Below are positions 8,180-64,000 of a stretch of 64,000 nucleotides of DNA, piece after piece. The stretch lies in contig CBDFJF010000002.1 in the NCBI GenBank assembly GCA_965248265.1, positions 672,001 to 736,000 of the forward strand, read 5' to 3'. Within the stretch, counting starts at the first letter, position 1. Every line of letters begins with the position of its first letter. This DNA comes from Candidatus Latescibacterota bacterium. GTDB lineage: Bacteria; Latescibacterota; UBA2968; UBA8231. The position numbers and the translations under genes were made by a program. The notes under the pieces were generated by a model. That model saw only the letters and a program-made list of their open reading frames with translations, was not told the origin of the DNA and did no database searches.

Positions 8180-9418
8180 ACAGCCGGTCAGCATGGTCGC
8201 CAGCGTACCCGCTACCAGCGAGCGCAGCCCAAGGCGAGCCAGATCGCCCCTGCGGTCGGGCGCGATGGCGCCGATGCCCCCGATCATGATTGCGACCGAA
8301 CCAAAGTTGGCGAAGCCACACAGCGCATAGGTACAGATCAGGAACGACCGGTGGCTGATGGCCGACGCCTGATCCCCCATCAATCGCGTCAGTTCGGCAA
8401 AGGCTACGAATTCGTTGAGAATGGTCTTGACGCCCATGAGCCGGCCAGCTGTTTCCGCTTCTTGCCATGGGATTCCCATCAACCAGACAGGATAGCGCAG
8501 AACATATCCCAGCGCCGCCTGGAGACTCCAGCCGGTTGCCGTGCCATGAAGGAGGCCGTCGATCCAGCCCACGACCGTATTGGCAAGTGCCACCAGGCCG
8601 ACAAAGGCGATCAGCACGGCGATGATGTTGATGAACAGGTGAATGCCCTCCGTGGCTCCGCGAGCAGCCGCGTCGACGCCGTTGTCGGTGTCGTCGGCTT
8701 CAATCTCAATCAGCTGACCCGTGGTGACAGGGCGTTCGGTTTCCGGCATCATCAACTTGGCGATGGCTATGGCGGCGGGAGCGCTAATCAGCGACGCAGT
8801 GAACAGGTGTCCGGCAATGAGCGGGTCTACCGCACTCAGCATCGAGGCGTACACGACCATGACGGTGCCCGCGATCGTGGCCATGCCCGCACACATCAGA
8901 CAGAACAACTCACTCTGGGTGAGGCGACTGACGAAGGGTCTGATCAGCAGCGGCGCTTCCGTCATCCCCAAGAACACGTTGGCTACCACGCCGATGCTTT
9001 CGGCGCCACTGATTCCCATCGAACGCTGCACAACACGGCTGGCCAGGGAGATGACGGCTGGCAAGATTCGATAGTGGTAGAGGATCCGCGACAGGGACGC
9101 CACGAATATCAAGATGGCGGCGATTTCGAGTGCCAGCATGGGCCCGAAGGCCTGCTTGAACTGAGGACTGGAGATCCCGATGAACAGCAGAGACTCGTTG
9201 GCCTTCAGTGCCGTCGCTTGAAGGACATCCGTCAATGATGCAACAACGGCAAACACATATTCGCGGAGCTGGGTCAGCAGGAGCACGGCGGCGAGACCGA
9301 CCTGCAGCAAAGTTCCCACGACCACTGGTCGAAAGGAGATTGGTGTCTGGCGGGTGCCCACAATCCAGGCAACGCCCAGCAGGGTGATGTAGCCACAGGT
9401 TGAGTGGAGTGTTTCCAT
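8159..9418 (-). CDS. nupC: Concentrative nucleoside transporter (CNT/NupC family)
   Basis: SGAES, NVFLGMTEAPL, GMATIAGTV, KTILNEFVA, YALCGFANFGS. Confidence 0.92.
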   Translation of the reverse strand: METLHSTCGYITLLGVAWIVGTRQTPISFRPVVVGTLLQVGLAAVLLLTQLREYVFAVVASLTDVLQATALKANESLLFIGISSPQFKQAFGPMLALEIAAILIFVASLSRILYHYRILPAVISLASRVVQRSMGISGAESIGVVANVFLGMTEAPLLIRPFVSRLTQSELFCLMCAGMATIAGTVMVVYASMLSAVDPLIAGHLFTASLISAPAAIAIAKLMMPETERPVTTGQLIEIEADDTDNGVDAAARGATEGIHLFINIIAVLIAFVGLVALANTVVGWIDGLLHGTATGWSLQAALGYVLRYPVWLMGIPWQEAETAGRLMGVKTILNEFVAFAELTRLMGDQASAISHRSFLICTYALCGFANFGSVAIMIGGIGAIAPDRRGDLARLGLRSLVAGTLATMLTGCVIGLFI

Positions 9419-9428
9419 GGTCGTCTGT

Positions 9429-10088
9429 TCAATCCGGGTAGAGATGCGCGAGCGCCGACTGCACCAGCGCGCTCGGGGTCAGGGTAGCGTCGAGGCGAAT
9501 CGCTTCACCCCACACGTCGAATTGGCACACGGCGGCTGCGAAACGAGAGAAATCAGCATCCCCGCCCAATCGGGTTCCTCGCTGTTCAAGGCGGGCACGC
9601 CACAGGTCCGGGGGGGGTGGGTCCAGATGCAGGACAGTCAATCCGGACGGGGCGATGGACGCGGACAGACCCTCCCACAGCTGTGTCACCGCAAGCTCAG
9701 GCCCCCAACCTCCACTGAGCAGAACGACGCGCCTGCCGACAAGATTGGCGCATGCCACCCGCAATGGTCCGGCATATTCGAGAGGTCGCAACCTGGACCA
9801 GTAGTCAGCTGATCCGTAGGCCTGACTCTCATCGATCCCGGCGTCTTTCGCCGCGTTCAAGATGAATCCGGCGGCCGTGCAGTCCTTGTCCAGGTGCAGC
9901 GATTCCGGGAGCTCCCCCAGCAGGCCTGTGGCCAAAGTCGACTTGCCGGTCCCAGGAGGCCCGGCCAGGATTACCAGGCGCGAAGCCTTCGAACCAGAAC
10001 GCGCGGCATCCAGCAGGGCTGTCACTGTCGGCAGCGGATCCGCAACCGACCCGGCGTAACCGCCACCGAGGCGCGAGACATCCATCAT
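9429..10088 (-). CDS. P-loop kinase (AAA_33/NMP-kinase-like)
   Basis: Walker A GPPGTGKS, HLDKD, RARLEQRG lid-like motif. Confidence 0.7.
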   Translation of the reverse strand: MMDVSRLGGGYAGSVADPLPTVTALLDAARSGSKASRLVILAGPPGTGKSTLATGLLGELPESLHLDKDCTAAGFILNAAKDAGIDESQAYGSADYWSRLRPLEYAGPLRVACANLVGRRVVLLSGGWGPELAVTQLWEGLSASIAPSGLTVLHLDPPPPDLWRARLEQRGTRLGGDADFSRFAAAVCQFDVWGEAIRLDATLTPSALVQSALAHLYPD

Positions 10089-10100
10089 TCTCTTCCTCCT

Positions 10101-11240
10101 TTACTTACACCGGCGGCGAGCCGTTGTGTAGTCGAGGACACCCAGCAGGGCCACGACCCCGGCACCCCCCACCAGCAGCTTCCCGGCGTCGGGAGGCGCC
10201 AATGTCAGCACGCCCAAAGCCAGAATACCCGTGAGAGCTACCATGCCGTAAATGACCAGAACCGCATTTCGTCTCGATAGCCCCAAGGTCACCAGTCGAT
10301 GGCTGACATGGTTGGTGTCTCCGAGCCATGGGGGTGTTCCCCGCCACAGGCGCGAGGCGACGACCGTTAGCTGATCGTATGCGGCCACCGAGAGCACGGA
10401 CAACGGTGCCAACAGACGTGGCCACTCGGAGGCCGCCGAGTCATTTAGGTGATGACTCAACAGGGTGGTCATGCCGGCCGCAGCGAAGCCGAGGAACAAG
10501 CCGCCCGCATCCCCCATGAAAATGCTGGCTCGCGGGAAATTGAAGAGCAGAAACCCGGCCGACGCTCCCGCCAGGGTCAACGACAGCAACATCGTCCCCA
10601 AGTGTGAAGTCCACAGGGCGATCACGCCGATGGAGGCAAACACGATGACGGACATGCCAGCTGCCAGGCCGTCCATGTTGTCGAGGAAGTTGAAGGCATT
10701 CGCCATCGCTACGATCCATACAATCGTTACCAGCGGCGCCAATAGCGGGATCGTCGGCGTCAATGGCAAGGTGAAACCCGGTATGCCCCAGGCAAGTGTA
10801 CTGGCTGCAACCAGCTGCACGATAAGCCGTACCAGCGGAGAGAGTCCGACCCAATCATCCGCGAGGCCAACCAGAAAAACGGCGCTGCCGCACAAGAACA
10901 GTGCCAGTGTCTGGGCGAAATGGGCGCTCTCCAGTCCAGAGACAAGGGCGAAAAAGGTACCGGGTGCCACCTGAGGGTCAGCGACCAGCGCGAGACCGAT
11001 CAGCGCCATGGCCCCCACGGCGGCACCACAATAGATGGCGATTCCGCCGCCGTACGGGACCGGATTCAGATGCGTCTTGTAGGCGCCCGCGTCCGGGTGG
11101 TCAACCAGCCCGAATCGCAGCGCCAAACGGCGCACCGCAGGGGTGGCGACCGCCGTGATCAGGGCGCCGCCGGCAACGATTGCCAGCATGACGTGCAGAG
11201 GGAGGATCAAAGCCTCGCGGTCTGGTAATTTGTCACACAA
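10101..11240 (-). CDS. Undecaprenyl-phosphate sugar-1-phosphate transferase (WecA/MraY, Glycos_transf_4 family)
   Basis: GLVDHP, PYGGG, VGLADD, NAFNFLDNMDGL, IFMGDAG, HVSHRL; polytopic membrane protein. Confidence 0.9.
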   Translation of the reverse strand: MCDKLPDREALILPLHVMLAIVAGGALITAVATPAVRRLALRFGLVDHPDAGAYKTHLNPVPYGGGIAIYCGAAVGAMALIGLALVADPQVAPGTFFALVSGLESAHFAQTLALFLCGSAVFLVGLADDWVGLSPLVRLIVQLVAASTLAWGIPGFTLPLTPTIPLLAPLVTIVWIVAMANAFNFLDNMDGLAAGMSVIVFASIGVIALWTSHLGTMLLSLTLAGASAGFLLFNFPRASIFMGDAGGLFLGFAAAGMTTLLSHHLNDSAASEWPRLLAPLSVLSVAAYDQLTVVASRLWRGTPPWLGDTNHVSHRLVTLGLSRRNAVLVIYGMVALTGILALGVLTLAPPDAGKLLVGGAGVVALLGVLDYTTARRRCK

Positions 11241-54141: not shown

Positions 54142-56088
54142 TTGGCTGTGACGCCATCGTCGTCGCCCTTCACTGCCAAGGGTTTTCTGGTCGGTGCGAT
54201 CGGCTCGCTGCTGGTAAGCATGTGCGCGCCCTACGTCGTGTTCATGCTCCAGGCTTCGTCCATGGGCATCAACAGCTCCTCCCCGGGCGCCATCTTCTTC
54301 TTTTTCATCCTCGTATTCGTAGTCAATACCCTGCTCGGCCTGATCAAGCGGCGTTTCGCTCTGGGTCGAGGCGACCTCGTCCTCGTCTACGCCATGCTGA
54401 TGATGGCGGTGACGGTGCCGACGTACAATTTTGTCAACTACTTGCTGGCGATGGTCACGGGACCGTACTACCTGGCCAGTGCCGAGAACGAGTTCGAGCA
54501 GGTCTATCACCCACACATCGCCGACTGGATGGTGCCGCAGGATCATCAGGCGATCGTCGGTTTGTTCGAGGGGTTGCCGCGGGGGCAGTCGATCCCGTGG
54601 GGTGCCTGGGTCGAGCCACTCGGGTACTGGTTCGCCTTCTTCCTGGCGCTCAGCTTCATGATGATCTGCATGGGCACGATCCTGCACCGGCAGTGGTCGC
54701 AGCACGAGCGCCTGAGCTATCCGATGGTGCAGCTGCCGACCAAGATGATCGAAGGCAGCGATTCAACCTCTGCCCGCATACTGCCGTTCTTCAAGAGCAA
54801 GGCCATGTGGGTGGGGTTTGCCGTCCCCTTCACCCTGTTCAGTTTCACCGGGTTGCACCACTACTATCCCGGTGTGCCCGATTTCCCCTTCTACCTGGGA
54901 TGGGTGCACTGGTTTCGCGGTCTGGATGCCTGGGGCGAGGGGATCGCGCTGAGCTACGCCTGGGTCGGATTTTTCTACCTCGTCGATCTCGATATCTCTT
55001 TCAGCATCTGGTTTTTCTACCTGATGCTGAAACTGCAGGGTGGATTGTTCCGCCATCTGGGCATCGCCAGTACCGAAAAACTGAGCCAGTACGAGTACTC
55101 GCAGACAGCGGATTTCTCCCATCAGGCGGCTGGAGCCGTCATCGTCTTCGTCCTCTACGGCTTGTGGATGGCTCGTGGCCACCTGCGCGATGTCATCATC
55201 AAGGCCTGGCGTCCGTCGCAAGGCGTCGACGACAGTGAGGAGCTGATGCCCTACCGCCTGGCCTTCTTCGGCGGTATCGCTTCAGCCCTGTTCGTGTGTG
55301 TGTGGTTGTGGCGCTCGGGCATTCCGCTGATCGTCGTTCCCGTGTTCTTCGCCATCTGCATCATCTATTACATCTTCATCACCCGCGTCGTCGCCGCCAG
55401 CGGGGTGCCGACGGCCCGTCCACCTCTGGTCGCTCCGTACTTCGTGATCTCGGGCATGGGAACATCGATTCTGGGAGCCAAGGGCCTGGTGGCGATGGGG
55501 TTTACGATGGTATGGCAGGCGGAGATGCGCCTGTTTCCGATGCTGGCCTGTGCCAATGCGCTCAAGCTGGCGGAGACCGTTCGCGGTCCCAAGAGGCGGC
55601 TGCTGTGGGGCATGCTGCTGGCATTGGTCTGCGGACTGGTGGGTTCCACCTGGGTGAACATGCACATCGGTTACGGCTATGGTGGCAATAACCTGGGAAG
55701 CTATCCCGGATTCGCCTATAACTGGGATTACATGCTATCGTGGATGCACAACCCGACGGAAGCCAATGTCAGAGGATGGTTCTTCACCGGCATCGGCGGT
55801 ACCATCGAGGGATTGCTGCTGCTGGCACAAAAGCGCTGGTTCTGGTGGCCGCTGCATCCGCTCGGGTTCACGGTAGCCGTCGGCTGGTTGACCAGCGAAA
55901 TCTGGTTCCCCGCCTTCGTGGCCTGGATTCTCAAGCTCGCCATCGTCGGCTACGGCGGTGTCCGTCTGTATCAGTTGTTCAAGCCATTCTTTCTGGGAAT
56001 GATTCTGGGTGAGGTGACGGTGGCCGGGTTCTGGGCCTTCGTCGATTCGATTACGGGTGCCACGGGAAATGTCATCACCTATATGTGA
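54142..56088 (+). CDS. DUF6785/DUF6784-type polytopic membrane protein (putative OPT-like transporter)
   Basis: Many TM helices; IPWGAW..PL, RQW...ERLSYP, WWPLHPLG, PFFLGMILGE. Confidence 0.7.
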   Translation: MAVTPSSSPFTAKGFLVGAIGSLLVSMCAPYVVFMLQASSMGINSSSPGAIFFFFILVFVVNTLLGLIKRRFALGRGDLVLVYAMLMMAVTVPTYNFVNYLLAMVTGPYYLASAENEFEQVYHPHIADWMVPQDHQAIVGLFEGLPRGQSIPWGAWVEPLGYWFAFFLALSFMMICMGTILHRQWSQHERLSYPMVQLPTKMIEGSDSTSARILPFFKSKAMWVGFAVPFTLFSFTGLHHYYPGVPDFPFYLGWVHWFRGLDAWGEGIALSYAWVGFFYLVDLDISFSIWFFYLMLKLQGGLFRHLGIASTEKLSQYEYSQTADFSHQAAGAVIVFVLYGLWMARGHLRDVIIKAWRPSQGVDDSEELMPYRLAFFGGIASALFVCVWLWRSGIPLIVVPVFFAICIIYYIFITRVVAASGVPTARPPLVAPYFVISGMGTSILGAKGLVAMGFTMVWQAEMRLFPMLACANALKLAETVRGPKRRLLWGMLLALVCGLVGSTWVNMHIGYGYGGNNLGSYPGFAYNWDYMLSWMHNPTEANVRGWFFTGIGGTIEGLLLLAQKRWFWWPLHPLGFTVAVGWLTSEIWFPAFVAWILKLAIVGYGGVRLYQLFKPFFLGMILGEVTVAGFWAFVDSITGATGNVITYM

Positions 56089-57831: not shown

Positions 57832-58689
57832 GTGATCTGGTTACTCCTCGCAGTACTCACCTCATTCAGTTTTGGCCAACTGTTCAAGTGGTCCCAACGC
57901 CGCGGCTTCTATGCGCCAGTTGTGGTGACGACGAACTACTTTGTCGTGGCCCTGATGCTGAGCGCCGTCCTGATTCTAGGCCGTGGCTTCAACCTCGATC
58001 TACAGGTTCTCCTGGTCGGCTCGGTAACTGGCGTGGCCTTCATCACTTCCATGCTGCTGTGGACGTGGGCATTGACCGTTTCGAACGTGACTACTGCGCT
58101 CATGGCATTCCGCTTGTCCATGCTCGTGCCCATCGTTGCCGGCGCCGTGGTGTGGCAAGAGGAGGTGTCCCGGGTGCAACTGCTCGGGATTTTTGTAGCG
58201 CTGTGCTCGTTGTTGTTGATGAGCATGGGGGGACGCGCCAGTGTCCAGCGCATCTCTCGTGTTCAGCAAGTCCTGATTGCCTTCGGCATATTCGTGATGC
58301 AGGGAATCTCGCAGCTGTGCAATCGTTGGGTGCGGCCAGCCGGTCTGGACGACCAGCATCTCGAGGTGATCGTGATCACGGCCACTACCGCCGCTGTGAT
58401 CGGGTCGGCGGCCGTGTTGCTGCTACCCCGGCACCCGGACAGTGCGCCGCGCGTGAGTCTGCCAGCTCTGCGTATGGGGGCGGGAATCGGCCTCTTCAAC
58501 GGCATCGCACTGGTTATCATGTTGATCGCCCTGAGCCGTTTCGACGGGGCTCAGTACTACCCGATCAACGGCTGCGCCGTCGTCATCATGGACTGCCTGT
58601 TCGCACATTTTCTGTGGAAAGAGCGCCTGTCAGCTCTTACCATCGCGGGAGCGGCATTGGGTGGCTGTTCGATGTTTCTGGTTTTTTGA
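57832..58689 (+). CDS. DMT/EamA family transporter
   Basis: About 10 TM helices in two repeats; VVWQEEV..QLLGI, FLWKERL. Confidence 0.8.
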   Translation: MIWLLLAVLTSFSFGQLFKWSQRRGFYAPVVVTTNYFVVALMLSAVLILGRGFNLDLQVLLVGSVTGVAFITSMLLWTWALTVSNVTTALMAFRLSMLVPIVAGAVVWQEEVSRVQLLGIFVALCSLLLMSMGGRASVQRISRVQQVLIAFGIFVMQGISQLCNRWVRPAGLDDQHLEVIVITATTAAVIGSAAVLLLPRHPDSAPRVSLPALRMGAGIGLFNGIALVIMLIALSRFDGAQYYPINGCAVVIMDCLFAHFLWKERLSALTIAGAALGGCSMFLVF

Positions 58690-58708
58690 AATCCGCTCTT
58701 CCCCTTTC

Positions 58709-59557
58709 CTACAGGTTCCAGCGGTCCTCGAAGGCCTCTTCCACGCTGAGCTTGACCATGCTGAAGCGCTTGGCCGAGGGGATGTGGCGGGCGGTCCATT
58801 TGACGGCGAACTCGATGTCGGCATCCGTGTAGCCGTCGTTTTTCAGGTCGGAATACTGGTCGAGGTCCTGCTCGAGGTGATCATCGGGCGGCATCTCGTG
58901 CACCAGCTCGTAGAACATCATCACCAGCACCGACTCCTGATCTGCGGTCAGCGAATCGGCAGGGGCCGGCGTTGTTTCCTCGACGGCGTCATCGCCGTCT
59001 GCTGAGGTCTGCAACTCCTGGGTGCCGGCATCCACCGCGTCTTCCTCCGTACCGGCAACGGCGGAAGCAGCTTCTTGGGTAGTGCTGTCATCGGGTACCC
59101 CTCCAGACTCGTAGAGTTTCTTGTAACGCGTGATCATATCATTGGCGTCGTTCAGCCGGTCTGCCAACACACGAATCAGATTCCGGTAGACCTTGATCCG
59201 CAGGTCCACGTGCCGATCGAGGAGGGATTCGAAATCGTGGTGCTCGATTCGGAGCAAGCGGGATGGCTCACTGGTGATGACGGTTGCCGACCGAGGCTTG
59301 CGATTCACGAATCCCATTTCGCCGACCGTCGTCACCGGACGTACGTCCGCAAGAGCGGTGCCATCACGGCTGACGATTTTGAGTGCGCCTTCAAGCAGGA
59401 TGAAGAAGCGACGACTCGCCGTTCCGTACTCGCAGATGACCTCGTCCACGGGGCATTTGGTCGTTTTGCAGATCTCCATGAAGAGCTTGACGTCGCGTGG
59501 TTTGAGGCCGAAAAACAGCGGCACCTTCTGCGTCAATTGCTGCGCCAGACTGGGCAC
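58709..59557 (-). CDS. Cyclic nucleotide-binding protein with an unknown C-terminal domain
   Basis: VPLFFGL, FFILLEG, VGEMGF..RKPRSATV phosphate-binding cassette; acidic linker; helical C-domain. Confidence 0.85.
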   Translation of the reverse strand: MPSLAQQLTQKVPLFFGLKPRDVKLFMEICKTTKCPVDEVICEYGTASRRFFILLEGALKIVSRDGTALADVRPVTTVGEMGFVNRKPRSATVITSEPSRLLRIEHHDFESLLDRHVDLRIKVYRNLIRVLADRLNDANDMITRYKKLYESGGVPDDSTTQEAASAVAGTEEDAVDAGTQELQTSADGDDAVEETTPAPADSLTADQESVLVMMFYELVHEMPPDDHLEQDLDQYSDLKNDGYTDADIEFAVKWTARHIPSAKRFSMVKLSVEEAFEDRWNL

Positions 59558-59560
59558 GGA

Positions 59561-59935
59561 TCAGGCCTCCCCTTCCATGACCTTGGAGATCTCGCCGGCA
59601 ATACGCTGTACCTTGAAAGGCTTGGCGACTACCTTCCTGACCTCGTGCTCCAGCAGAACCTCAAGGACTTTGGGTGTCAAGTATCCGGAGATGACGATGA
59701 TGGGAACCTGAGTGCCTTTCTTGCGTATGTAGCGGACGAAGTCGTCACCGTGAATGGCCGGCATCTTGATGTCGAGCAGCATGAGGGAGATGCTCTCTCG
59801 CTGCAGGATCGCCCAAGCCTCGGTCGCACGATCTGCTGTTGACGTTTCGTACCCCATGGCGAGGCTGATGTCGCGCAGCAGGTCGCGATATTCCTGGGAG
59901 TTATCGACGATCAAGATGCGCTTGGGCATCATCAC
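59561..59935 (-). CDS. Single-domain response regulator
   Basis: ILIVDN, LMLLDIKMP..HG, IIVISG, AKPF. Confidence 0.9.
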   Translation of the reverse strand: MMMPKRILIVDNSQEYRDLLRDISLAMGYETSTADRATEAWAILQRESISLMLLDIKMPAIHGDDFVRYIRKKGTQVPIIVISGYLTPKVLEVLLEHEVRKVVAKPFKVQRIAGEISKVMEGEA

Positions 59936-61178
59936 CCTCGTCGGTCACGGGTGCAGCATCCAAGATCGGCAGGGTCACCGTGAAGGTAGCGCCCTTTCCC
60001 TCCTGACTGTGTACGGCAATGGAGGCTCCATGATCCTCCAGAATTCTGAAGACGATGCTGAGGCCCAAGCCGGCACCGGTCTCCTCCTTGGTGGTGTAAA
60101 ACGGATCGAAGATGTGCTCCTTCACTTGATCAGACATCCCCAAACCCGAATCACACACCCGCACTTCTATGCAATCTCCTGACACCGCCGATGTGATGTC
60201 GATTTCTCCACCCTCAGGCATGGCCTCCGCGGCGTTCAGCATCAGATTCGTGAAAACTTCCTTTACATCAGCTGGATTGACGAAGGTTACAGGCAAGGTG
60301 GCCAATTCCGTTTTCCAGGTAATCTCTCCATGTCCCGCTCGCGATTGTTCGGCCAGCGCTCCGGCATCCGCCGCCGCCGCGGTCACCAACTCATTGATAT
60401 TCTCGGCGGTGCGGCTGCGCCCGACGCCCAACCGAGTGGCACGATGAATCCGATTGATGAGCTCTTGTCCTTCTTCCGCCGACGCCAGGATGGCAGACAT
60501 CGCCTGCTCAGGCTCCTTGCCAAAGTTGAGGAACAGATCGGCTCTTCCAATGATGAGTCCCAGGATATGGCGCACGGTATGAGTGACGTCCGCGGCCAGA
60601 TCGCCGAGAGCGCGCAACTGCTCGAGTTGCGCGATTTTGTTTTGTGCCGCTTTGAGCTCCCGGTAGGCCTGAGACAGGTTCGTGTGTAACCGTGCGTTGT
60701 GTAGGGCGGCTGCTGCCTGGAGGGCGAACGAATGCAACAGGGACTCGTCATTGTCGTCGAACGGCCCGACTTCGCCTTCGCGTCCTTCCCGGTCAGCTAC
60801 GAGCAGCAGGCCAGACATGACATCGCGGCACTCGAGTGGGACGATGCAGACGAAGCGGAAGCCGTCGACGCTGCTCTCGCACTGGACCATCTCGCGCGTT
60901 TGCCAAGCCTGCTCGAGTTGAGGAATCGTGGTTGCCGAAGCGGCATCTTGCCCGAGCCCTGCACTGCCCATAACCTCGAACGACGCCCCATCCTGTTCGC
61001 GCATCAGTAGCAGAGCCGAACGAGCATCGACCATCATCACCGCTCGCTGCAACAACTGCTCGGCGACGCGAAGTGGGTCGAGGGATTCGCTCAATGCGAG
61101 GCCGACTTCATACAGCATCTCCATCTGCATGAGCCGCCTGCGGCCCTCGAATCCAGTCGCTTCACTATCCGTGTTCAT
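59901..61178 (-). CDS. GAF-domain histidine kinase
   Basis: GAF ending AALHNARLH; H-box ADVTHTVRH; NLMLNAAEAM; DSGLGM; IFDPFYTTK; GAGLGL; start set at MNTDSE. Confidence 0.9.
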   Translation of the reverse strand: MNTDSEATGFEGRRRLMQMEMLYEVGLALSESLDPLRVAEQLLQRAVMMVDARSALLLMREQDGASFEVMGSAGLGQDAASATTIPQLEQAWQTREMVQCESSVDGFRFVCIVPLECRDVMSGLLLVADREGREGEVGPFDDNDESLLHSFALQAAAALHNARLHTNLSQAYRELKAAQNKIAQLEQLRALGDLAADVTHTVRHILGLIIGRADLFLNFGKEPEQAMSAILASAEEGQELINRIHRATRLGVGRSRTAENINELVTAAAADAGALAEQSRAGHGEITWKTELATLPVTFVNPADVKEVFTNLMLNAAEAMPEGGEIDITSAVSGDCIEVRVCDSGLGMSDQVKEHIFDPFYTTKEETGAGLGLSIVFRILEDHGASIAVHSQEGKGATFTVTLPILDAAPVTDEGDDAQAHLDRR

Positions 61179-61372
61179 TGCGCTCTCTTCCGCCCCGGTT
61201 AGGTTTGCCCTAAGATATTGCAAAAGCAGACGATTAACCCAAAAAAAGTCGGCAGCGCCGTGGACCAATCTCGGCGCTCGGGCAACAACAGTACGCACTC
61301 GAGCCATCGTGAAGCCGTATATTGTAGCATGATCTAAACGGGGCCCAGGCGAACAGGAACGGAGATATTGCT

Positions 61373-61783
61373 GTGGAAGACAAACGCAACGATGTCGATC
61401 TGATCATTCCCATGATACCGGACATGGAGCTGACGGCCAGTAAGACCGCCGAGGCCGTGGGCGAGTTCATGGAGTTGGATAAGGACAAGATTGACGAAAT
61501 CAAGCTAGCCCTTATCGAAGCTTGCATCAACGCGATAGAGCACAGCAAGAGCGAAGATCGACGAGTCAGCATCAATTTCGAGATCGGTGAAGAAGAGTTG
61601 ACCCTTTACATATCTGACCGCGGAAAGGGCTTCGATCTCGTCAAGGTCCATGAGGAGCTCGGTCGAGGAGCTCGCGCAGATCGTCGTGGGTGGGGGCTCA
61701 AGATCATGGAAGAATTGATGGACCGGGTTGAGGTCAACTCCGACGAGAGCGGCACCATGATTACGATGATCAAGCGCCGCTGA
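61373..61783 (+). CDS. RsbW/SpoIIAB-like anti-sigma factor Ser kinase
   Basis: IKLALIEACINAIEH, ISDRGKGFD, RGWGLKIMEELMD. Confidence 0.9.
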   Translation: MEDKRNDVDLIIPMIPDMELTASKTAEAVGEFMELDKDKIDEIKLALIEACINAIEHSKSEDRRVSINFEIGEEELTLYISDRGKGFDLVKVHEELGRGARADRRGWGLKIMEELMDRVEVNSDESGTMITMIKRR

Positions 61784-61794
61784 AAAGGGAAGGA

Positions 61795-63780
61795 ATGGCA
61801 GCTGACGGTCACTCTGAGCGCCTGACGCAGGAGCTTCAAGACGCGAACTTTCAGCTCAACCGAAAGCTGGCGCAGATGGAGACCCTGCACGAAGCGGGTT
61901 TGAATCTCAGTGCGTCGTTGCAGGTCCAGGAAGTAATCGAGGAGTTTCTGCGCAATGCTGTCGCCGTCGTAGACGCGGGCAGCGGTTTTCTATTCCTCAA
62001 GAACGAAAAGACGAGACACTTCGGCGTGGCTGCGCATGCGAACATGAGCGAGACACAACAAGAGATGCTCAAGGATCCCGCATTCCGAAAGCATATGCAG
62101 CGTGTGCTGAAGGGTCGCTCGTTTATGATGCTCGGCGAAGGAGATTTCCCCACGGGGTTCTCAGGGCGTCACGTACTGGTGGTTCCAGCCCCTCCTGTGG
62201 GTTTCATAGGCGTGATTGACAAAGAAAGTCGCGAGGGGGTGCAGCCCTTCGAGGATGAGGACGGCCAGCTGCTGGGATTGATGGGGCAGCATGCCGGGAT
62301 GGCTCTCGCCAACGCGCGCCTCTACCGGCAGATGGTCGAAGAGAAGAACCTGGCCTTGAATATCTTCGACAGCGTCGCAGACGGTGTGATCTCGGTGGAT
62401 TTGCAGGGGACGATCATTCGCGTTAACCACGCTGTGAAACGGATGTTCAGCGATGAGAAGGTGTTCTTCGGCAAATCCTGTATCAATCTTTTCAAGCGCC
62501 TGGGGTGCATGAATATCGCTCAGGCCGTCCTGTTTTCGCTCGAAGACGGACACCCCCGTGCTGTGACGAATGACGAGCCCCGGGTCGAAGGTCGGGGTCC
62601 GGACGTCAACCTGAATGCGAAGATCACCCCCCTACGTGGCCAACAGGGCGAAATGGAGGGACTCGTCCTGGCGTTGGAGGATCTCACAGAAGAAACCCGC
62701 GTGCGCGACATGTTCAAGCAGTTCGCCAGCGACCAGGTGGTCGAGTTGCTCTTGAAAGATGGCTCGGCACCGGCCCTGGGTGGACAGACGCTCCAGGCGA
62801 CGATGTTGTTCATGGATATTGCGGGCTACACCGAGCTGCTGGGCAACATTGGCAGCGAAGAGATGGTGCGCCTGATGAACGACTGTTACACCCGCATGGT
62901 GGACATTGTCTTCAAGCACAACGGCACGCTCGACAAATACACGGGAGACGGATTCTTCGTCGTTTTCGGAGCGCCGCTCAGCCTGGACAACGACAGCCAC
63001 AGGGCTGTTCAATGTGCCTTGGAGATTGTGCAGGAACTGGATCGATTCAACACTGCGCACAAGCTCTCCTTTGGCGTCCGCCTGGGCATCAGTCGAGGCA
63101 CCGTGGTGGCCGGCAACATCGGTTCACCACGTAGAATGGAATACAGCGTAATCGGGCCAGACGTCAATCTGGCCCAGCGGTTGTGTGACCAGGCTCTGTC
63201 CGGAGAGATTCTGATCGGAGAAAGCGTTTTCGCGGAAGTTGCTGAGCAGTTCGAGCTCGCTACCATCGGCAGGCTGCGTTTCAAGGGGATTCGCGAACCG
63301 CTGGACGTGTATCAGGTCGTGGGTCCCACCGGCGTCCGCCTCTTGCCGGAGCGGGCAGGCCGGGCGCGAAAGGATGGGGCGACTGTCGATCTGAACATCC
63401 CGATGGAGTCATCCATGGAGCTCACGGCAAGCAACACGGCCGCGTCCGTGGCTGGACTCATGGGGCTCGATCCCATCAAGACCGACGAAGTCAAGCTTGC
63501 CGTGATCGAAGCCTGCATCAACGCCTTCGAACACAGTCAAAGCAAGGACCAGCGTCTCAACGTGGGTTTTTCGATCGGCGAGAAAGAGTTCACCGTGGTG
63601 ATGACCGACCGCGGGCATGGCTTCGATGTGTCGGAGGCCGCCTCCAAAGTCAAGAAGCGAAGAGCTCGTGGCGACCAGCGCCGTGGCTGGGGCCTGGAGC
63701 TCATCGACACCTACATGGACGAGGTTGAGATTGAATCCGGTCAGGACGGCACGATCCTGACGCTGGTCAAATATCGGTAA
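61795..63780 (+). CDS. GAF-PAS-class III adenylate cyclase fused to a C-terminal RsbW-like kinase domain
   Basis: GAF; PAS (VADGVISVD); cyclase LFMDIAGYT, LDKYTGDG, GNIGS, EYSVIG.DVNLAQRL; then VIEACINAFEH, TDRGHGFD, RGWGLELI. Confidence 0.9.
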   Translation: MAADGHSERLTQELQDANFQLNRKLAQMETLHEAGLNLSASLQVQEVIEEFLRNAVAVVDAGSGFLFLKNEKTRHFGVAAHANMSETQQEMLKDPAFRKHMQRVLKGRSFMMLGEGDFPTGFSGRHVLVVPAPPVGFIGVIDKESREGVQPFEDEDGQLLGLMGQHAGMALANARLYRQMVEEKNLALNIFDSVADGVISVDLQGTIIRVNHAVKRMFSDEKVFFGKSCINLFKRLGCMNIAQAVLFSLEDGHPRAVTNDEPRVEGRGPDVNLNAKITPLRGQQGEMEGLVLALEDLTEETRVRDMFKQFASDQVVELLLKDGSAPALGGQTLQATMLFMDIAGYTELLGNIGSEEMVRLMNDCYTRMVDIVFKHNGTLDKYTGDGFFVVFGAPLSLDNDSHRAVQCALEIVQELDRFNTAHKLSFGVRLGISRGTVVAGNIGSPRRMEYSVIGPDVNLAQRLCDQALSGEILIGESVFAEVAEQFELATIGRLRFKGIREPLDVYQVVGPTGVRLLPERAGRARKDGATVDLNIPMESSMELTASNTAASVAGLMGLDPIKTDEVKLAVIEACINAFEHSQSKDQRLNVGFSIGEKEFTVVMTDRGHGFDVSEAASKVKKRRARGDQRRGWGLELIDTYMDEVEIESGQDGTILTLVKYR

Positions 63781-63819
63781 TTGAAATCAAAAACGCCTTT
63801 GCGAACGGAGATCGAAGCG

Positions 63820-64000
63820 ATGGCAGATGATGCACAAACACGAGTACGAAGAGTGGATTCAGCCGCTGTGGTAGAGGCCCCCGAATACATAAACAACATC
63901 GGCGGAGAGAGTCTGGCGGAGGCCTGCAAGGGCCTGATGGATGGCAATGTTTTGGGGATCGTCCTGAACCTGGAAAGCTGTAACATAGCCAACAGTGTGG
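63820..64000 (+). CDS. STAS-domain anti-sigma factor antagonist (RsbV-like), truncated by the window end
   Basis: MADDAQTRVRRVDSAAVVEAPEYINNIGGESLAEACKGLMDGNVLGIVLNLESCNIANSV...; NS falls at the DSxG phosphoacceptor position; GGAG upstream. Confidence 0.75.
   Translation, partial: MADDAQTRVRRVDSAAVVEAPEYINNIGGESLAEACKGLMDGNVLGIVLNLESCNIANSV

Follow-up and report, generated by a model that had tools for sequence, protein, structure and literature searches.

The locus examined here raises the question of what an RsbW-type serine kinase does at the C-terminus of a nucleotide cyclase. Class III adenylate cyclases take many N-terminal sensors, and partner switching classically controls sigma factors; a polypeptide that joins the two lies near the end of a 64,000-nucleotide stretch of DNA (the window; positions 672,001 to 736,000, forward strand, of contig CBDFJF010000002.1, assembly GCA_965248265.1) from a Candidatus Latescibacterota bacterium with a genome of 7.3 Mb in two contigs. 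The list of open reading frames (ORFs) and their Pfam/NCBIfam matches resolve its final 5.3 kb into two tightly packed divergent gene sets. On the + strand, a stand-alone RsbW-like kinase is followed after 11 bp by the cyclase–kinase fusion, directly past whose stop begins the ORF of a STAS protein, and then by a PilZ-like ORF. We favor the reading, with a probability of roughly one half, that this operon is a partner switch whose output is a cyclase making cyclic adenosine monophosphate (cAMP), instead of a sigma factor.

The fusion (61795–63780, +) is a protein of 661 amino acids (aa) comprising an N-terminal helix, a sensor part with a GAF domain (residues ~44–173) and a PAS domain (~189–301; the two together at 61924–62697, +, assigned from GAF_3, PAS_4 at E 1e-8 and predicted folds), a class III cyclase catalytic domain (residues 334–508; 62794–63318, +), a linker (residues ~512–529; 63328–63381, +) and an RsbW/SpoIIAB-type kinase domain (residues 530–661; 63382–63777, +). 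The cyclase matches Guanylate_cyc (PF00211) at 3.1e-28, with 99.1 bits against a cut-off of 21.9, and the kinase matches HATPase_c_2 (PF13581) at 1.4e-21, with 77.3 bits against a cut-off of 27.4. An initial annotation made from the sequence had read this ORF as GAF-PAS-cyclase-RsbW, and Pfam/NCBIfam recovered each of the domains that it named; the catalytic motifs that it had listed for the cyclase (FMD with D341, DKY with K381, TGD with D385, NLAQR with N458 and R462) and for the kinase (EACIN with E572 and N576, DRGHGFD with D605, G607 and G609, RGWG at R630–G633) likewise all lie at the residues given.

The canonical cyclase hexad is complete in this protein (D341, K381, D385, S451, N458 and R462). 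Its best solved matches are Synechocystis Cya2 (2W01) and IlaC (6FHT), with both metal-binding aspartates, the lysine, the asparagine and the arginine aligned. The fusion is most likely a soluble homodimeric class III nucleotide cyclase, with cAMP as the predicted product because of its Lys/Ser substrate pair. The kinase domain carries all three boxes of its family: the N-box (E572, N576, H580), G1 (D605-G607-G609) and G2 (R630-G631-G633). Its nearest solved relatives are RsbW (6M36, 3.8e-10) and SpoIIAB (1TH8, 4.9e-5). An AlphaFold2 (AF2) model of the whole fusion has a mean predicted local distance difference test (pLDDT) of 76.9 and a predicted template modeling score (pTM) of 0.45; the domains are well folded, GAF and PAS included, and joints of low confidence fall at 184–194 and 517–527. 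The latter is the cyclase–kinase linker (pLDDT < 50), the equivalent of which (residues 510–533) spans 20–31 residues among 75 relatives, in poorly conserved alignment columns. It is accordingly modeled as a flexible tether, ~25 residues in length.

This architecture recurs well beyond the window. A word-indexed search with fusion residues 330–661 as the query, over clusters at 90% identity, returned 67 clusters in which PF00211 and PF13581 both occur along the whole query, with 39–81% identity and in several cases on contigs of 1–8 Mb. An exhaustive HMMER pass over 1.84 billion representatives at 50% identity found 12 full-length and 5 fragmentary clusters spanning both domains; of the others, two are stand-alone RsbW paralogues and the remainder are ordinary cyclases. 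The named sources of the fusion clusters are Latescibacterota or Latescibacteria; locus L002, from a genome of the same class as the window genome, is likewise of Candidatus Latescibacterota. Within the phylum the fusion was found in 13 of 168 genomes, representing 12 of 49 genera. Scans of collections of genome contigs and of metagenome contigs listed mostly ordinary cyclases: among the 80 loci listed from each, true fusions number two in genome contigs (L002, L003) and none in metagenome contigs, and for this reason our counts of genomic context rest on the 12 loci from the search of the phylum (the window and 11 others). To judge by these sequences, the cyclase–kinase architecture is genuine, conserved and rare. 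An assembly artefact or a recent chimera, which would have undone the earlier proposal, is rejected by the ~75 sequenced relatives: they extend over the full length at 39–81% identity on independent contigs of up to 8 Mb.

Conservation was counted in both halves of the pair across these 75 relatives. In the cyclase, D341, D385 and R462 are invariant and residue 451 is Ser or Thr in 74 (Ser in 20, Thr in 54), with K381 kept in 65, N458 in 50 and the full canonical hexad in 42. In the kinase, N576, H580, D605, G607, G609, R630, G631 and G633 are found in all 75 and E572 in 74. The N-terminal input varies across the family, being absent or taking the form of GAF, GAF-PAS, GAF-GAF-PAS or REC, and the cyclase–kinase pair stays constant while these inputs are swapped, as would be expected if the pair were the functional unit.

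Some members of the family depart from the standard form. In G071 the fusion is split, its GAF-PAS half lying ~700 kb from the cyclase–kinase half (L103, L106; G071:C1 at ~2.17 Mb and 1.47 Mb) and transposase genes of the ISL3, DDE_Tnp_1_4 and Mutator types bordering each half; this looks like a disruption or rearrangement mediated by insertion sequences (IS). The fusion of G098 (L104:8971–10973) consists of two overlapping ORFs (8971–10053 and 10047–10973) that together give the whole protein, which is a frameshift or a sequencing error. A variant in G101 (L105:8935–10692; protein P0069, matching PF00211 only) stops at ~residue 570, just before the kinase N-box, and could act as a natural control without the kinase. 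A further candidate for a divergent fusion, L126 (tblastn range residues 295–654), was discarded, its Pfam domains being Cache-HAMP-cyclase followed by a polysaccharide deacetylase.

The third component is the STAS protein (63781–64170, +, with the window ending at 64000), of 129 aa from a TTG start, with an ATG at codon 14. The initial annotation had called this gene from its truncated part; Pfam matches nothing in the 73 aa encoded up to the window's end, and the call is borne out once the ORF is read past 64000, the full-length product being a single-domain STAS protein (PF01740, 6.6e-11, 42.4 bits against a cut-off of 22.6). Its Ser72 lies in an N-S-x-G-I-S motif and aligns with the first serine of the SpoIIAA DSSG motif, which we take to be the phospho-acceptor. 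Five orthologues all retain N71, S72 and G74. Only four STAS matches were found in the window genome, and only two of these are small ORFs.

Both synteny and phyletic patterns connect this protein to the fusion. A STAS gene stands directly 3' of the fusion in six of the 12 loci (the window, G113, G041, G039, G042 and G044), the contig end cutting it in two of them, and in the IS-disrupted G071 it lies less than 2 kb from the fusion. Across the 168 genomes, matches to the window STAS protein at E ≤ 1e-15 occur in 17, namely 12 of the 13 genomes with a fusion and 5 of the 155 others; the sole fusion genome without one, G096, is 85% complete and split into 980 contigs. Tightening the threshold to E ≤ 1e-30 leaves nine matches, every one of them in a fusion genome. 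As these genomes are kin, we treat the co-occurrence as a pattern and attach no statistic to it. Synteny and phyletic co-occurrence thus back a predicted functional tie between fusion and STAS protein.

A complex prediction for fusion residues 320–661 with the STAS protein scored 0.60 (runs 0.60, 0.59 and 0.66), the best of three controls scoring 0.00; at least 92% of the contacts agree between runs and the partner pLDDT is at least 83. Of 157 solved complexes, 116 pass the mark that this score clears, as do 2 of 215 mismatched pairs; only 18 of the 157, along with both passing mismatches, lie at or below 0.60. The pass may reflect mere likeness, because the SpoIIAB–SpoIIAA and RsbW–RsbV complexes are already solved. 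The prediction lends weak support to binding of the STAS protein by the cyclase–kinase part.

The neighborhoods of the fusion fall into three types. Type A loci, which belong to other families, contain in order a STAS gene, a gene for a 282–318-aa protein with HATPase_c_2 at its end, the fusion, another STAS gene and a convergent gene for a beta-propeller-SpoIIE phosphatase; together these make up a complete partner-switch gene set. In type B loci (G099, G098 and G131, of two genera), the fusion follows genes for a PAS histidine kinase, NtrC, EIIA-Ntr, a sigma factor (RpoS/RpoD-like, ~250 bits) and a LOG protein, all co-directional. On the 3' side of the type B fusions (L098, L101, L104) are genes for a UVR-motif protein, a GAF-sigma54 activator and an ammonium transporter, and the LOG protein is lysine-decarboxylase-like; this suggests a nitrogen-related setting. 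Type C comprises the window and G113, where the GAF kinase (1e-133), the receiver, the cyclic-nucleotide-binding protein (1e-76), the fusion and the start of the STAS gene are all co-directional. The six-gene neighborhood, the conservation of which had been proposed as a check, is thus complete in one of the 11 other loci (G113); elsewhere its modules are dispersed. The type A loci also bear on the earlier view that the cyclase stands in this system instead of a PP2C phosphatase. That view does not hold: a beta-propeller-SpoIIE gene lies directly behind the STAS gene and convergent to it in three relatives, and the window genome itself has five strong SpoIIE domains and a weak one elsewhere.

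The stand-alone RsbW/SpoIIAB-type kinase (61373–61783, +; 136 aa) scores 85.7 bits for HATPase_c_2, where the cut-off is 27.4; it is paralogous to the fused domain and 52.7% identical to it. Its best PDB match is RsbW 6M36 (E 1.1e-14), and it reaches 68.4 bits of the 145 set as the NCBIfam RsbW equivalog cut-off. A tree built from 17 kinase domains pairs the window's stand-alone copy with that of G039 (95/93), nests this pair inside the clade of fused domains and places the 282–318-aa kinases of the type A loci in a separate, distant clade (100/100). The only strong HATPase_c_2 matches in the window genome are the two at this locus (85 and 81 bits; next 41). From these HATPase_c_2 counts, along with those of STAS and sigma domains, the genome's only apparent canonical kinase–STAS pair is the one attached to the cyclase, and it has no classical sigma client.

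A possible reader of the cyclase product is encoded by the divergent set. On the − strand, a GAF-HisKA-HATPase_c histidine kinase (59901–61178 with its likely start, the ORF being open to 61307; domains from Pfam) overlaps at its end a stand-alone 124-aa receiver (REC; 59561–59935, −; Response_reg 4.2e-22), which is followed after 3 bp by a 282-aa protein that binds, by prediction, cyclic nucleotide monophosphates (cNMP; 58709–59557, −; cNMP_binding 3.2e-17). The N-terminal helix and GAF domain of the histidine kinase are paralogous to those of the fusion (31% identity over 223 aa, E 1e-17). Its orthologues, of 422–425 aa, match at E 1e-133 (G113) and 1e-137, and orthologues of the receiver hold the same position in G113 and G099. 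The N-terminus of the cNMP protein is a cyclic-nucleotide-binding domain containing the phosphate-binding motif GE...RSA; an acidic linker that is disordered (~154–203) and a conserved C-terminal four-helix module (~201–281) follow. Pfam reports cNMP_binding only; neither it nor NCBIfam detects a CRP-type helix-turn-helix, and the NCBIfam CRP model covers just residues 21–143, at 26.8 bits against 266. The protein thus does not appear to be a transcription factor of the CRP/FNR kind.

The C-terminal module of the cNMP protein belongs to no Pfam family. It is very rare, a word search over 5.8 billion sequences having returned three other clusters, and it is conserved in their alignment; AF2 models it as four helices with pLDDT 76–88. 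In a fold search its best matches were DnaD-like 2ZC2 (Z 6.3, root-mean-square deviation 2.8, 67 aligned) and the G39P helicase loader (Z 5.9). These Z scores lie in a range common for helical bundles and are too weak for a function to be assigned. Full-length orthologues of the whole protein occur in seven genomes, and a contig end truncates one more; the fusion is present in five of the seven and absent from two, making the phyletic tie to the fusion looser than that of the STAS protein. Genes for cNMP-binding proteins nevertheless recur beside RsbW and STAS genes. In G099, the GAF-kinase/receiver/cNMP operon is kept away from the fusion, and a separate operon codes for a stand-alone RsbW (2.5e-55 to that of the window), a STAS protein, a cNMP-receiver fusion protein and another GAF kinase; in G098 a cNMP gene lies 32 bp past a STAS gene, and in G094 a cNMP-like ORF, RsbW and STAS stand together. 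This recurrent adjacency backs a putative link between cNMP binding and the RsbW–STAS pair.

Under the favored reading, we infer the following cycle. The fused kinase domain would bind the unphosphorylated STAS protein encoded downstream and phosphorylate it at Ser72, and PP2C phosphatases of the SpoIIE type, whose genes lie at other places in this genome but beside the system in relatives, would dephosphorylate it in response to signals of their own. Occupancy of the tethered kinase domain by the STAS protein would alter cyclase activity; our guess is that the effect is activation, through relief of an inhibitory docking or dimer geometry. The stand-alone RsbW would compete for the same STAS protein and phosphorylate it, setting a threshold. 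The cAMP would be read by cNMP-binding proteins, here presumably the 282-aa product of the divergent operon. Because the histidine kinase carries a GAF sensor paralogous to that of the fusion, a single ligand could act on the two-component branch and the cAMP branch alike.

Several points weigh against this reading. First, the effect of the STAS protein on the cyclase is our inference, and the complex prediction returned no interface, so that the domain contacted by the STAS protein is not indicated. Second, no STAS gene is found near the fusion in five of the 12 loci (G099, G098, G131, G094 and G101), and in two of these (G099 and G094) a stand-alone RsbW accompanies the STAS orthologue and might therefore be its sole partner. 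Third, the window locus has no PP2C gene, the nearest being ~174 kb away. Fourth, the second substrate residue is Ser451, whereas studied adenylate cyclases have Asp or Thr; this makes the nucleotide specificity less certain, the idea that Ser acts like Thr being an assumption. Fifth, Asn458 is replaced in 25 of the 75 relatives (by V, S, I, C or G) and Lys381 in 10 (by R, Q or H), whereas the kinase motifs are invariant, and selection may thus act more on the kinase than on cyclase catalysis. Finally, the GAF_3 match (E 0.004) is under the Pfam cut-off, the domain being recognizable as a GAF fold in the AF2 model.

The fifth point is the ground for an alternative that we consider unlikely, in which the protein is a GAF-PAS-regulated STAS kinase, its cyclase fold serves as a transducer for dimerization or nucleotide sensing with little or no cAMP made, and the STAS protein acts on another target. 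The erosion of the hexad in 33 of 75 relatives against a fixed set of kinase motifs would fit such a role. Yet the invariance of both metal-binding aspartates and the arginine, and the near-invariance of Ser/Thr451, are hard to explain otherwise than by catalysis and favor it over a non-catalytic fold. The window protein, moreover, retains all six residues, and the recurrence of cNMP-binding genes beside the system fits a cyclic-nucleotide product.

A second alternative, also improbable in our estimate, makes the fusion bifunctional: the fused RsbW would be a true anti-sigma factor of an RpoS/RpoD-like sigma, released by the STAS protein, and cAMP synthesis would run in parallel under GAF-PAS control. 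It draws on the sigma-70-family gene in a co-directional run with the fusion in the three type B loci (3 of 12), on RsbW and SpoIIAB being the closest solved relatives of the fused domain, and on the ~10 sigma-70 paralogues of 280–340 aa in the window genome. Against it, there is no sigma gene in the window locus or in the type A loci. RsbW/SpoIIAB-type kinases are known to bind sigma factors of the SigB/F/G class, and none of the 13 sigma matches in the genome reaches the cut-off for that class. The fused domain itself falls far under the NCBIfam equivalog cut-offs, at 56.7 against 145 bits for RsbW and 45.8 against 135 for SpoIIAB, and does not qualify as an orthologue of either.

Least probable among the alternatives is that the fused kinase acts on its own cyclase/PAS region, the cNMP protein or the receiver, leaving the STAS protein to the stand-alone RsbW: the window does have two kinases for one STAS protein, G099 and G094 do have stand-alone RsbW–STAS pairs away from the fusion, and the stand-alone copies do form a supported pair of their own in the tree, but G113, G041, G042 and G044 lack a close stand-alone RsbW paralogue between or beside fusion and STAS gene, the adjoining 282–318-aa kinases are of the distant clade and have an upstream STAS gene of their own, and the phyletic tie links the STAS protein to the fusion.

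The partner switch with a cyclase as its output can also be taken a step further, to a speculative version that we hold to be doubtful. Here the tethered RsbW would treat its own cyclase as its relatives treat a sigma factor: the docked cyclase would be inactive, unphosphorylated STAS protein would displace the kinase and then be phosphorylated, resetting the system, and cNMP-binding proteins fused or coupled to receivers would read the cAMP and feed back on the kinase–STAS pair. This would amount to a self-resetting generator of cAMP pulses with PP2C inputs. If true, bacterial cAMP would here be controlled by a new logic, and this would be the first case of an adenylate cyclase as the client of a partner switch.

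Comparison with known systems sets off what is distinctive here. The Bacillus pairs RsbW–RsbV and SpoIIAB–SpoIIAA (6M36/6M37, 1TH8, 1TID) share the kinase fold with its N, G1 and G2 boxes, a single-domain STAS protein with a serine at the acceptor position, and a kinase gene adjoining the STAS gene. Unlike them, the present system lacks a sigma factor of the SigB/F/G class, scores far under the RsbW and SpoIIAB equivalog cut-offs and has the kinase as the C-terminal domain of a cyclase, in the gene order kinase–STAS rather than antagonist–kinase–sigma. Cya2 (2W01) and IlaC (6FHT; an adenylate cyclase engineered from Cya2) resemble the fusion in pairing a GAF/PAS-type N-terminal sensor with a homodimeric cyclase and in the combination of Lys with Thr/Ser, which we take to be the substrate pair of class IIIb enzymes. 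The cyanobacterial CyaB1 likewise has the architecture GAF-GAF-PAS-cyclase. These GAF/PAS-regulated cyclases differ in having no kinase after the cyclase and in being regulated, by ligand or light, via the N-terminal sensor only.

Fusions of RsbW-type kinases to other modules have precedents of another kind. Mycobacterium tuberculosis Rv1364c has the order PP2C-kinase-STAS. HsbR is a multi-domain partner-switch protein of the form REC-PP2C-kinase (PMC8457831). Both share with the fusion the joining of an RsbW-type kinase to other signaling modules of the same pathway; theirs unite components of the switch (phosphatase, STAS), whereas here the partner is the output enzyme. The closest functional parallels, as described in the same source, are partner switches that control diguanylate cyclases through STAS-type proteins, namely HsbA–HsbD and SiaC–SiaD (HptB-HsbR-HsbA/HsbD and SiaABC/SiaD of Pseudomonas aeruginosa) and BgrV–BgrR (BgrSTUWV/BgrR of Sinorhizobium meliloti) (PMC8457831). 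In these, the activity of a second-messenger cyclase, in place of a sigma factor or in addition to one, is determined by a kinase together with a PP2C phosphatase and a STAS-type protein, the phosphorylation state of the last being decisive. Their cyclases are GGDEF enzymes making cyclic di-GMP (c-di-GMP) on separate polypeptides, whereas here a class III cyclase is covalently joined to the kinase and any direct STAS–cyclase contact is putative. Pfam finds no GGDEF domain at the locus, leaving the class III cyclase as the candidate output.

The claim that a cyclase–RsbW fusion had yet to be characterized stands within the searchable literature, in which we found no description of one (subscription-only papers and the InterPro/CDART lists being outside this scope). 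Nor did the literature searched yield a precedent for a partner switch with an adenylate cyclase client; the matches were mentions of "adenylate cyclase" in two-hybrid assays or unrelated papers, the part of PMC9127174 consulted, for instance, being on two-hybrid methods. If correct, the favored reading would link partner switching directly to class III cyclases, with phosphorylation of a STAS serine controlling cAMP, and would reveal in a little-studied uncultured phylum a cAMP network built from RsbW, STAS, PP2C, cNMP-binding and receiver modules. The fusion and the 129-aa STAS protein are compact enough for study in E. coli cya strains, with no need to grow the source organism, and the natural variants of the family, with inputs swapped, kinase truncated or Asn/Lys replaced, are ready-made controls.

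The two gene sets diverge from an intergenic region that had been put at about 190 bp. It measures 194 bp (61179–61372) if the histidine kinase starts at its 44th codon (61178), and 65 bp from the first possible start; the shorter protein, of 425 aa, matches the orthologue lengths. No inverted repeat was found in 61100–61400. Within 58500–64000 one promoter-like site was scored, no more than the 1.8 expected by chance, and six terminator-like sites against 4.6 expected; none of this gives a usable signal.

Reading on past 64000, as had been proposed, brought up neither a sigma factor nor a SpoIIE gene in the ~8 kb downstream, and no PP2C/SpoIIE gene lies in the last 10 kb of the window. The PilZ-like ORF (64185–64571, +, equal to L001:8185–8571; 128 aa) lies beyond the window and begins 14 bp past the STAS stop. 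It matches PilZ below threshold (17.9 bits against a cut-off of 22.5, E 0.004), and its translation has RQSPR and DISSFG 25 residues apart, presumably the RxxxR and D/NxSxxG motifs with which PilZ binds c-di-GMP; this hints at possible cross-talk between cAMP and c-di-GMP. No homologue of it adjoins the fusion in the other loci examined. Further 3' are oxidoreductase, receiver, Ldh_2 and ABC-transporter genes that are unrelated to the locus. An extracytoplasmic function (ECF) sigma gene ~9 kb downstream (~72767–74097, +; L001:16767–18097) was considered as a target and set aside: a putative partner ORF of its own (279 aa) follows it, the two being probably an unrelated sigma/anti-sigma pair, and the unrelated oxidoreductase and ABC-transporter genes intervene before the locus.

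On the other side, a large DUF6785/DUF6784 membrane protein is encoded at 54142–56088 (+), ~2.6 kb from the cNMP gene. Its orthologue in G131 (2.9e-117; L191:1835–3997) adjoins a STAS orthologue and a GFO/IDH oxidoreductase gene, a placement that suggests remnant synteny around the locus.

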